IMG/VR virus record: IMGVR_UViG_2713896833_000003
Location: 1-14,385 of that record
Reading direction: 5' to 3' (one strand)
DNA: 14,385 nt
Source of the DNA: a virus
Lineage: Duplodnaviria; Heunggongvirae; Uroviricota; Caudoviricetes
In this document: positions 4,817 through 5,356 of the stretch, in pieces
How the letters are laid out: the number at the start of each line of letters is the position of its first letter
Numbering within the stretch: the stretch's first letter is position 1
Position numbers and translations under genes: made by a program
The notes under the pieces: generated by a model
The model's database searches: none
Told to the model about the DNA's origin: nothing
Seen by the model: only the letters and a program-made list of their open reading frames with translations

Positions 4817-5356
4817 ATGGATATTACTGAGTTTCCTTCTGGAGTAATTGAACACCTTGGCTGGTATGTATACCGATTGATTGATCCGAGGGACGGAAGC
4901 ACCTTCTATGTAGGGAAAGGCAAAGGTAACCGCGTATTTGCCCATATGCGCGGTGAAGTGGCAGCGACTGATGATGACGAGTTACTGAGCAACAAGCTAA
5001 AGCAAATTAGAGAAATAAGGTTAGCAGGACTTGAAGTTATCCATGTCATCCATCGACACGGAATGACTGATGAAAAGACGGCGTACGAAGTTGAAGCAGC
5101 ACTTATTGATGCCTACCCTGGGTTAACGAATATCATGAATGGTGCTGGCAGCAATGAATTCGGCGCCGCGCATGTCAAAGAGTTGATAGCAACATATCAG
5201 CCCGAAACCATAACATTTCATCATAAAGCATTAATGATATCCGTTAACAGAAGTGCAAAGGATTCAGAGCTTTATGATGCGGTTCGATTTAGCTGGCGCA
5301 TTAATGTCTCTCGCGCCAGCCAAGCAGAAATCATTCTTGCTACTGTACCCGGGTAG
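4817..5356 (+). CDS. GIY-YIG nuclease-domain protein (orphan), function unknown
   Basis: 179-aa ORF; N-terminal [32 protein letters not shown] fits the GIY...YIG...R...H pattern, with downstream E and N; no obvious SD; 3' end overlaps the convergent RusA-like ORF by 85 bp. Confidence 0.5.

Follow-up and report, generated by a model that had tools for sequence, protein, structure and literature searches.

A truncated and very probably inactive copy of the phage-defence gene PD-T4-3/CMoRE at a deletion junction in a prophage remnant

The defence gene PD-T4-3 was first found in Escherichia coli ECOR68, when the pangenome of the species was put through a functional selection (Vassallo et al. 2022, PMC9519451); the main text of that study speaks only of 'a GIY-YIG nuclease'. 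The system is active against Tevenvirinae in its native host (bioRxiv 10.1101/2024.12.20.629700), a homolog from Capnocytophaga acts as a modification-dependent nuclease (PMC12366544), and PD-T4-3 has since been renamed CMoRE (Cytosine Modification Restriction Endonuclease), a single-component type IV restriction endonuclease with structures 9U75, 9U8D, 9U7U and 9U7Z (Liu et al. 2026, PMC12923530). Here we describe a copy of this gene that retains only its first 177 codons, in the open reading frame (ORF) 4817..5356 (+ strand) of IMG/VR virus record IMGVR_UViG_2713896833_000003. The whole analysed stretch, positions 1 to 14,385 of that record (14,385 nucleotides), is referred to as the window. 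We consider it very probable that this ORF is a truncated, inactive pseudogene of PD-T4-3/CMoRE formed by a prophage deletion.

CMoRE binds and cuts the 5-hydroxymethylcytosine (5hmC) and glucosyl-5hmC (5ghmC) DNA of T-even phages, not DNA with unmodified cytosine or 5-methylcytosine (5mC); it is a tetramer and its cut site is CN11/N9G, between two modified cytosines (PMC12923530). The N-terminal GIY-YIG domain carries Y17, Y19 and Y31 ('GIYxY-YIG') and an acidic lid loop, which is autoinhibitory, neutralisation of the loop yielding a toxic enzyme (PMC12923530). The C-terminal domain binds 5hm-dCTP, contacting the main chain of Y127, and modification-dependent DNA binding maps to this domain (PMC12923530). 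All 274 surveyed CMoRE systems are single-component (PMC12923530). Cleavage of 5hmC/5ghmC DNA and protection against T-even phages are known from full-length proteins (PMC12923530, PMC12366544, bioRxiv 10.1101/2024.12.20.629700), and T-even DNA is generally stated to evade EcoRII through cytosine modification (PMC12923530).

Identity and truncation of the open reading frame

The ORF starts with ATG and encodes 179 amino acids (aa). Over codons 1-177 its DNA is 100% identical to that of WP_000355482.1, an E. coli protein of 257 aa whose gene in strain CFSAN064035 (774 nt) uses the same ATG; the relative locus carrying this full-length allele (L001) diverges after window position 5347. In a three-way alignment the window is identical to the full-length allele up to GCTACTGTA and unrelated beyond it. 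To the right of the junction at 5347/5348, starting with CCCGGGTAG, it follows another relative locus (L004) from position 4001 on, and GC content changes from ~44% to ~55%. Because the alignment identity ends at 5347, the ORF consists of codons 1-177 followed by Pro-Gly-stop. A megablast search of positions 4400-6000 against 5426 complete E. coli genomes returned many 100% identical matches, annotated as 'LEM-3-like GIY-YIG domain-containing protein', all of which end at 5347. The ORF and its upstream region are composed as follows.

4616..4816, + strand: upstream region moving with the gene, presumably its native promoter and 5' untranslated region (homology to the O157:H7 PD-T4-3 locus starts at 4616)
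4817..5347, + strand: PD-T4-3/CMoRE codons 1-177 (100% DNA identity to L001 8418-8948; PADLOC match)
5348..5356, + strand: foreign ORF tail, Pro-Gly-stop (CCC GGG TAG), from the antisense strand of a DNA-methyltransferase fragment

The PADLOC model for PD-T4-3 (PDLC04031, 256 positions) matches the ORF with E=2.1e-99 over positions 1-178 only, short of an end-to-end match, and the full-length allele with E=7.6e-140 over positions 1-255. The gene had been presented in a preliminary description of the window as an orphan nuclease, yet it is neither orphan nor novel: the full-length 257-aa gene occurs in 823 of the 5426 complete genomes. The wider family comprises 6723 members at E≤1e-5, and nearly all of the best 120 of these homologs are 243-261 aa long, so that the window copy, ending at residue 177, is a fragment of a gene that is full-length elsewhere. 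The full-length allele matches PDB entry 9U75 with E=5e-171 over all 257 residues and 9U7U with E=1.6e-150 end to end; comparison of its AlphaFold model with known structures ranked 9U75/9U7U first, followed by the GIY-YIG domains of UvrC and I-TevI. Residues 1-177 show only four differences from the O157:H7 crystal construct. NCBIfam holds no model for the protein, and Rfam and ARAGORN scans of the window found nothing.

The GIY-YIG fold suspected earlier was supported by both profile search and structure prediction. Pfam PF22945 (LEM-3_GIY-YIG) scores 55.4 bits (cut-off 27, E=8.8e-15) over residues 28-110, the generic PF01541 remaining under its cut-off (15 vs 22.6); superfamily membership is thus backed by a profile above its curated threshold and by the crystal structure available for a near-identical full-length protein. 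Y17, Y19 and Y31 (GIYxY-YIG), R39, E93 and N105 are all found in the 179-aa product, and the first five are invariant across a family alignment of 32 sequences. Their conservation points to R39 and E93 as the putative catalytic Arg and Glu. The acidic loop reads DDDE at residues 52-55, four negative residues in a row.

Upstream, an AT-rich spacer of 406 bp (35.5% GC vs 46.7% for the window) separates the ORF from the divergent methyltransferase gene, whose start is annotated at 4410. Both this arrangement and the reported lack of an obvious ribosome-binding site held up: the best AGGAGG match within -22..-4 is 2/6, and a consensus promoter scan returned no + strand site upstream of the ORF (within 4616..4816). 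Window positions 4616-5347 are 95.6% identical to the O157:H7 PD-T4-3 locus, with the -30..-1 sequence nearly the same in that allele. The O157:H7 gene gives protection from its native promoter (PMC12923530), and because a near-identical upstream region precedes it, the absent ribosome-binding site is no argument against the gene.

Domain limits were taken from an AlphaFold (AF2) model of the full-length allele (mean predicted local distance difference test score, pLDDT, of 82), in which the nuclease domain is predicted to extend to residue ~102, followed by a low-confidence linker (103-112) and the C-terminal domain (114-257). What had been called an uncharacterised C-terminal half is therefore the beginning of a modification-sensing domain that is already characterised. 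The window copy keeps the whole nuclease domain, the linker and 64 residues at the start of the C-terminal domain, including Y127. The break after residue 177 falls at the end of a predicted strand of the sensor domain (172-177), and the predicted strands 180-192, 218-224 and 251-253 and helix 227-233 are lost. Within the lost 80 residues lie 21 positions that are at least 90% conserved in the 32-sequence alignment, and the sensing domain (~114-257) is incomplete, residues 178-257 amounting to over half of it. Because DNA binding maps to a domain stripped of most of its β-sheet, we infer that the 179-aa product has probably lost its activity.

Several points weigh against this reading. The catalytic residues, R80, V92 and L96 (oligomerisation residues tested in PMC12923530), the upstream region and Y127 are all intact, and the 179-aa product may have residual or altered activity. 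The published activity data concern full-length proteins, and inactivity of the fragment is deduced from the domain that is lost. Moreover, the window is a short-read draft contig whose junctions rest on one assembly, a doubt countered by the same contig being on record for two samples. Taken furthest, the retained parts could leave the truncated protein a working nuclease, a free GIY-YIG domain that cuts weakly and independently of modification and serves as a toxin or a new defence factor, or that exerts a dominant-negative effect on a full-length copy elsewhere in the genome. The nuclease domain with Y17/Y19/Y31, R39, E93 and the acidic loop is indeed unchanged, as is the upstream region, and the tetramer contacts tested in PMC12923530 (V92/L96, β1-β2 loop) lie in the retained part. 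However, modification-dependent DNA binding sits in the C-terminal domain (PMC12923530), which here is without three β-strands and 21 near-invariant residues, while the autoinhibitory loop is still there. Truncated alleles with other break points are rare and scattered, which argues for decay rather than a selected form, and the flanking genes are likewise fragments. We regard a working nuclease as improbable and favour an inactive pseudogene.

Deletions in a thrW prophage

The window corresponds to an entire draft contig, LJGI01000073.1 (assembly GCA_001282375.1). E. coli KKa014 holds, between these same attachment sites, an intact 44,858-bp prophage with a full-length PD-T4-3. Its order is attL, EcoRII-type endonuclease, Dcm-type methyltransferase, PD-T4-3, tail-fibre assembly (tfa), tail fibre (stf), lom and J, then tail, head, terminase, lysis, DNA-methyltransferase, Q, DUF968, KilA-N and RusA, and finally replication and immunity genes, excisionase, integrase and thrW. 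Window positions 1-5347 and 5736-14385 are 99.94% and 99.97% identical to KKa014, respectively, and three gaps of 25,585, 3,506 and 1,351 bp separate the window from this prophage. Judged by sequence, the window is a 14.4-kb remnant of a 44.9-kb lambdoid thrW prophage.

The largest gap starts at PD-T4-3 nt 532 and ends inside the DNA-methyltransferase gene, with a microhomology of 2 nt (TA); the 3,506-bp gap runs from the DNA-methyltransferase gene to the interior of DUF968, and the 1,351-bp gap from DUF968 to the interior of RusA, at GGTTATC. In the ancestor, PD-T4-3 stood at the far prophage end, between the tail-fibre genes and the EcoRII-type restriction-modification (R-M) pair. An illegitimate 25,585-bp deletion at the 2-nt TA fused gene nt 531 to the interior of the phage DNA-methyltransferase gene; residues 178-257 were lost with it, as were the tail, head, terminase and lysis genes. 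The two smaller deletions happened before or after it. The resulting 179-aa product has kept the nuclease domain and autoinhibitory loop and lost over half of the sensor, and is most likely blind to modified DNA and without effect in phage protection. Deletion mediated by an insertion sequence was considered and dropped, as no such element is left at either junction.

To the right of the junction, the deletions left three gene fragments.

5346..5561, - strand: internal fragment of the phage DNA-methyltransferase gene (98.6% identity to L004 3999-4211, inside the 1053-nt gene of WP_000799653.1)
5549..5754, - strand: internal fragment of the DUF968 gene (100% identity to KKa014 composite 36316-36521; Pfam DUF968 E=4.4e-7)
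5736..5958, - strand: N-terminal 74 codons of the RusA-family gene, start of the chimeric ORF (collinear with KKa014 from composite 37873, 99.97%; RusA annotated there)

The first fragment, corresponding to KKa014 composite 32597-32809, is the right partner of the 25,585-bp deletion, and the DUF968 fragment is bounded by the 3,506-bp and 1,351-bp deletions at short imperfect repeats. ORF 5272..5958 (- strand, 228 aa), which gene calling lists as a gene, is a read-through of the RusA N-terminus, the DUF968 interior and the DNA-methyltransferase interior that ends in the antisense strand of PD-T4-3, the three deletions having happened to leave one frame open. The preliminary description rightly placed the PD-T4-3 ORF at the junction between cargo and phage DNA and rightly gave an 85-bp overlap between its 3' end and this convergent ORF, but the latter, which it called RusA-like, is a fusion of three gene fragments and not a RusA gene. 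Chi sequences lie back to back in both orientations (CCACCAGCTGGTGG) at 5484-5497, 137 nt right of the deletion junction, and three more Chi sites in reverse orientation are found at 5611, 8410 and 12436.

A second broken copy is present in the complete genome of E. coli MSB1_9I (NZ_LR890508.1, JMW57_RS09640; locus L002), where PD-T4-3 is interrupted after the same nucleotide, gene nt 531 (L002 8948/8949), with TTCTTGCTACTGTA directly before the break. The sequence leading up to it is TCATTCTTGCTACTGTA, and AG comes next in unbroken copies. NCBI annotates this copy as a pseudogene missing its C-terminus. The two copies share the R-M/PD-T4-3 cassette (2 differences in 3,875 nt) and a location near the thrW locus; however, in MSB1_9I the gene is fused to the interior of tail gene J with GTA microhomology, by a deletion estimated at ~7.7 kb, whereas the window copy is fused to the DNA-methyltransferase gene by the 25.6-kb deletion. 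The MSB1_9I junction is unique to that genome.

This second copy also bears on whether the junction at 5347/5348 might be an artefact of the draft assembly, with the strain really holding an intact gene and prophage. Such an artefact would fit a window that is a whole draft contig and whose arrangement is found in 0 of the 5426 complete E. coli genomes. Assemblers, however, do not join sequences at 2-nt overlaps; the three junctions lie at homologies of 2 to ~10 nt, far shorter than any assembler overlap, the contig is recorded for two samples, and MSB1_9I provides a real break at the same nucleotide in a complete genome. We hold an assembly artefact to be very improbable and retain a prophage deletion as the origin of the junction.

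Two breaks after one nucleotide could mean that gene nt 531 is a recurrent break point, a local hot spot within PD-T4-3 at which double-strand breaks, illegitimate recombination or quasi-site recombination recur. An 80-nt probe across the site matched 797 E. coli records, 796 of them intact and only MSB1_9I broken. A 17-mer scan of IMG/VR returned 96 stretches (87 PD-T4-3 copies, all intact at the site, and nine unrelated chance matches), and nothing in IMG/VR matched the 42 nt that precede the junction when any base other than A was required to come next. Other truncated proteins in a large protein collection break at residues 122, 129, ~172 and ~184. Because the copies found with the probe and in IMG/VR are intact and the other truncations break elsewhere, there is no general hot spot. 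The chance of a coincidence was estimated at ~0.4% per independent partial allele, with an upper bound of ~16% that assumes at most ~46 partial alleles (838 genomes with any match minus the 792 holding the 80-nt site). A recurrent break point is an unlikely, tentative proposal; if true, the type IV enzyme would be repeatedly disabled while the neighbouring EcoRII-type addiction module is spared. A nested second deletion from an MSB1_9I-like ancestor was dropped, as it needs the same coincidence. The sequence TTCTTG…TA at the break may resemble the left half of a hix/gix-type invertase site, and pinE is a native neighbour of the gene; the idea of such a site was also abandoned, the right-hand partner sequences being unlike such sites.

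The contig is bounded by two identical repeats.

1..64, reverse strand: left attachment-site repeat, 18 nt plus the 3' 46 nt of tRNA-Thr (thrW), identical to 14322-14385
14322..14385: right attachment-site repeat, beside the integrase gene 13162..14325, overlapping an annotated tRNA-Thr in relatives

The left repeat bears the integrase-side (phage) form of a 17-nt flank. The attL copy of KKa014 differs from it at 3 positions, and the MSB1_9I copy is likewise 95.3% identical (3/64). Because its left copy has the phage-side version of the flank, the contig ends resemble attP. This would mean either that assembly captured the 14.3-kb remnant as an excised circle or that attL has undergone conversion in the source strain. 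Still present on the remnant are the genes for integrase, excisionase and repressor and one replication gene; the immunity and replication region has survived. At 7341-7404, inside the HTH_36 replication-initiator gene 6772..7713, a 15-nt unit (CAGATTTTGACGGGT) is repeated about four times in tandem, which looks like an iteron-type origin within the initiator gene, as in lambdoid phages.

The restriction-modification pair and other contexts of PD-T4-3

Two further cargo genes lie to the left of PD-T4-3.

1734..2942, + strand: EcoRII-type restriction endonuclease, neighbouring cargo (Pfam EcoRII-N 3.9e-61, EcoRII-C 2.4e-71; gene call)
2977..4410, - strand: Dcm-family C5-cytosine methyltransferase, divergent from PD-T4-3 (Pfam DNA_methylase 4.7e-78, DNA_meth_N 7.1e-27)

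The methyltransferase product WP_001288444.1 is identical in L001, MSB1_9I and KKa014. CMoRE is compatible with a Dcm-type methylase because it ignores 5mC DNA, and in the intact prophage PD-T4-3 would have complemented EcoRII. The R-M pair (1734-4410) outlived all three deletions, and its products are unchanged relative to KKa014 and other strains, which would be consistent with the difficulty of losing such a pair. The R-M/PD-T4-3 cassette adjoins ssrA in two strains. Homology to the ssrA-linked cassette copies (L001, L006) starts within the tmRNA gene, 27 nt from its 3' end (1473-1499), and the thrW prophage therefore holds a 27-nt ssrA 3'-end remnant at the left edge of the cargo. This hints at movement of the R-M/PD-T4-3 cargo block between ssrA- and thrW-integrating prophages.

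The gene is found in other surroundings as well. In O157:H7 its neighbours are an AraC-family regulator and pinE, at the point where a prophage remnant ends, and the surrounding 5 kb contain no methyltransferase; in a dog isolate it is flanked by pinE on one side and the R-M pair on the other. The association of PD-T4-3 with the R-M pair is not obligatory. The functional link to the Dcm-family methyltransferase that had been suggested for the ORF finds no support in the O157:H7 locus or in the description of a single-gene system (PMC12923530), and a three-gene restriction-modification system was also dropped.

These contexts also speak to a further alternative, namely that the ORF is a degenerate GIY-YIG homing endonuclease or an EcoRII-type accessory nuclease, such as a Vsr-like nickase for repair of 5mC deamination. 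A weak PHROG match to a homing-endonuclease family (E=0.002) and the divergent Dcm-family methyltransferase would suit it. However, E values around 1e-140 tie the same protein to PD-T4-3 and phrog_5356, a family assignment that already refutes this alternative, and Pfam found no NUMOD, IENR1 or helix-turn-helix modules in either the fragment or the full-length protein. Its position is that of prophage-end cargo rather than of an intron or a site between conserved phage genes, the O157:H7 gene argues against obligate methyltransferase linkage, and the established biochemical function involves neither 5mC nor mismatches (PMC12923530). We find this alternative scarcely credible. Of the three options first put forward for the ORF, two combine, a truncated remnant and a standalone defence nuclease, the ORF being the remnant of such a nuclease; that of a homing-endonuclease-type gene falls for want of DNA-binding modules and with only a weak PHROG match at E=0.002.

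Significance and comparison with known systems

The family, its structure and its mechanism are already published, and the window copy is what decay has left of a known defence gene. It carries little biological weight, and its practical value lies in annotation: profile-based defence finders score the fragment at E about 1e-99 and would count an almost certainly dead PD-T4-3 unless coverage is checked. The window also offers a fully reconstructable case of prophage decay, in which three microhomology deletions have reduced 44.9 kb to 14.4 kb. The R-M pair, the immunity/replication region and integrase/excisionase were kept, whereas neither the type IV enzyme nor any structural or lysis gene survived.

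Compared with intact PD-T4-3/CMoRE, the window copy keeps GIYxY-YIG, the loop D52-E55, R39, E93 and Y127 as well as the position as prophage-end cargo, but lacks residues 178-257, with Pro-Gly-stop in their place and an incomplete sensing domain. Other type IV enzymes, such as McrA of prophage e14, the EVE-HNH enzyme VcaM4I and those with McrB N-terminal domains, similarly combine a reader with a nuclease domain. In contrast to these, the nuclease of PD-T4-3 is GIY-YIG rather than HNH or PD-(D/E)XK and its specificity is for 5hmC/5ghmC rather than 5mC; the window copy is left without most of the reader. Finally, PD-T4-3 differs from the GIY-YIG nucleases UvrC, I-TevI, T4 EndoII and R.Eco29kI in its extra tyrosine (GIYxY), its 15-residue acidic lid loop and its partner domains (PMC12923530).
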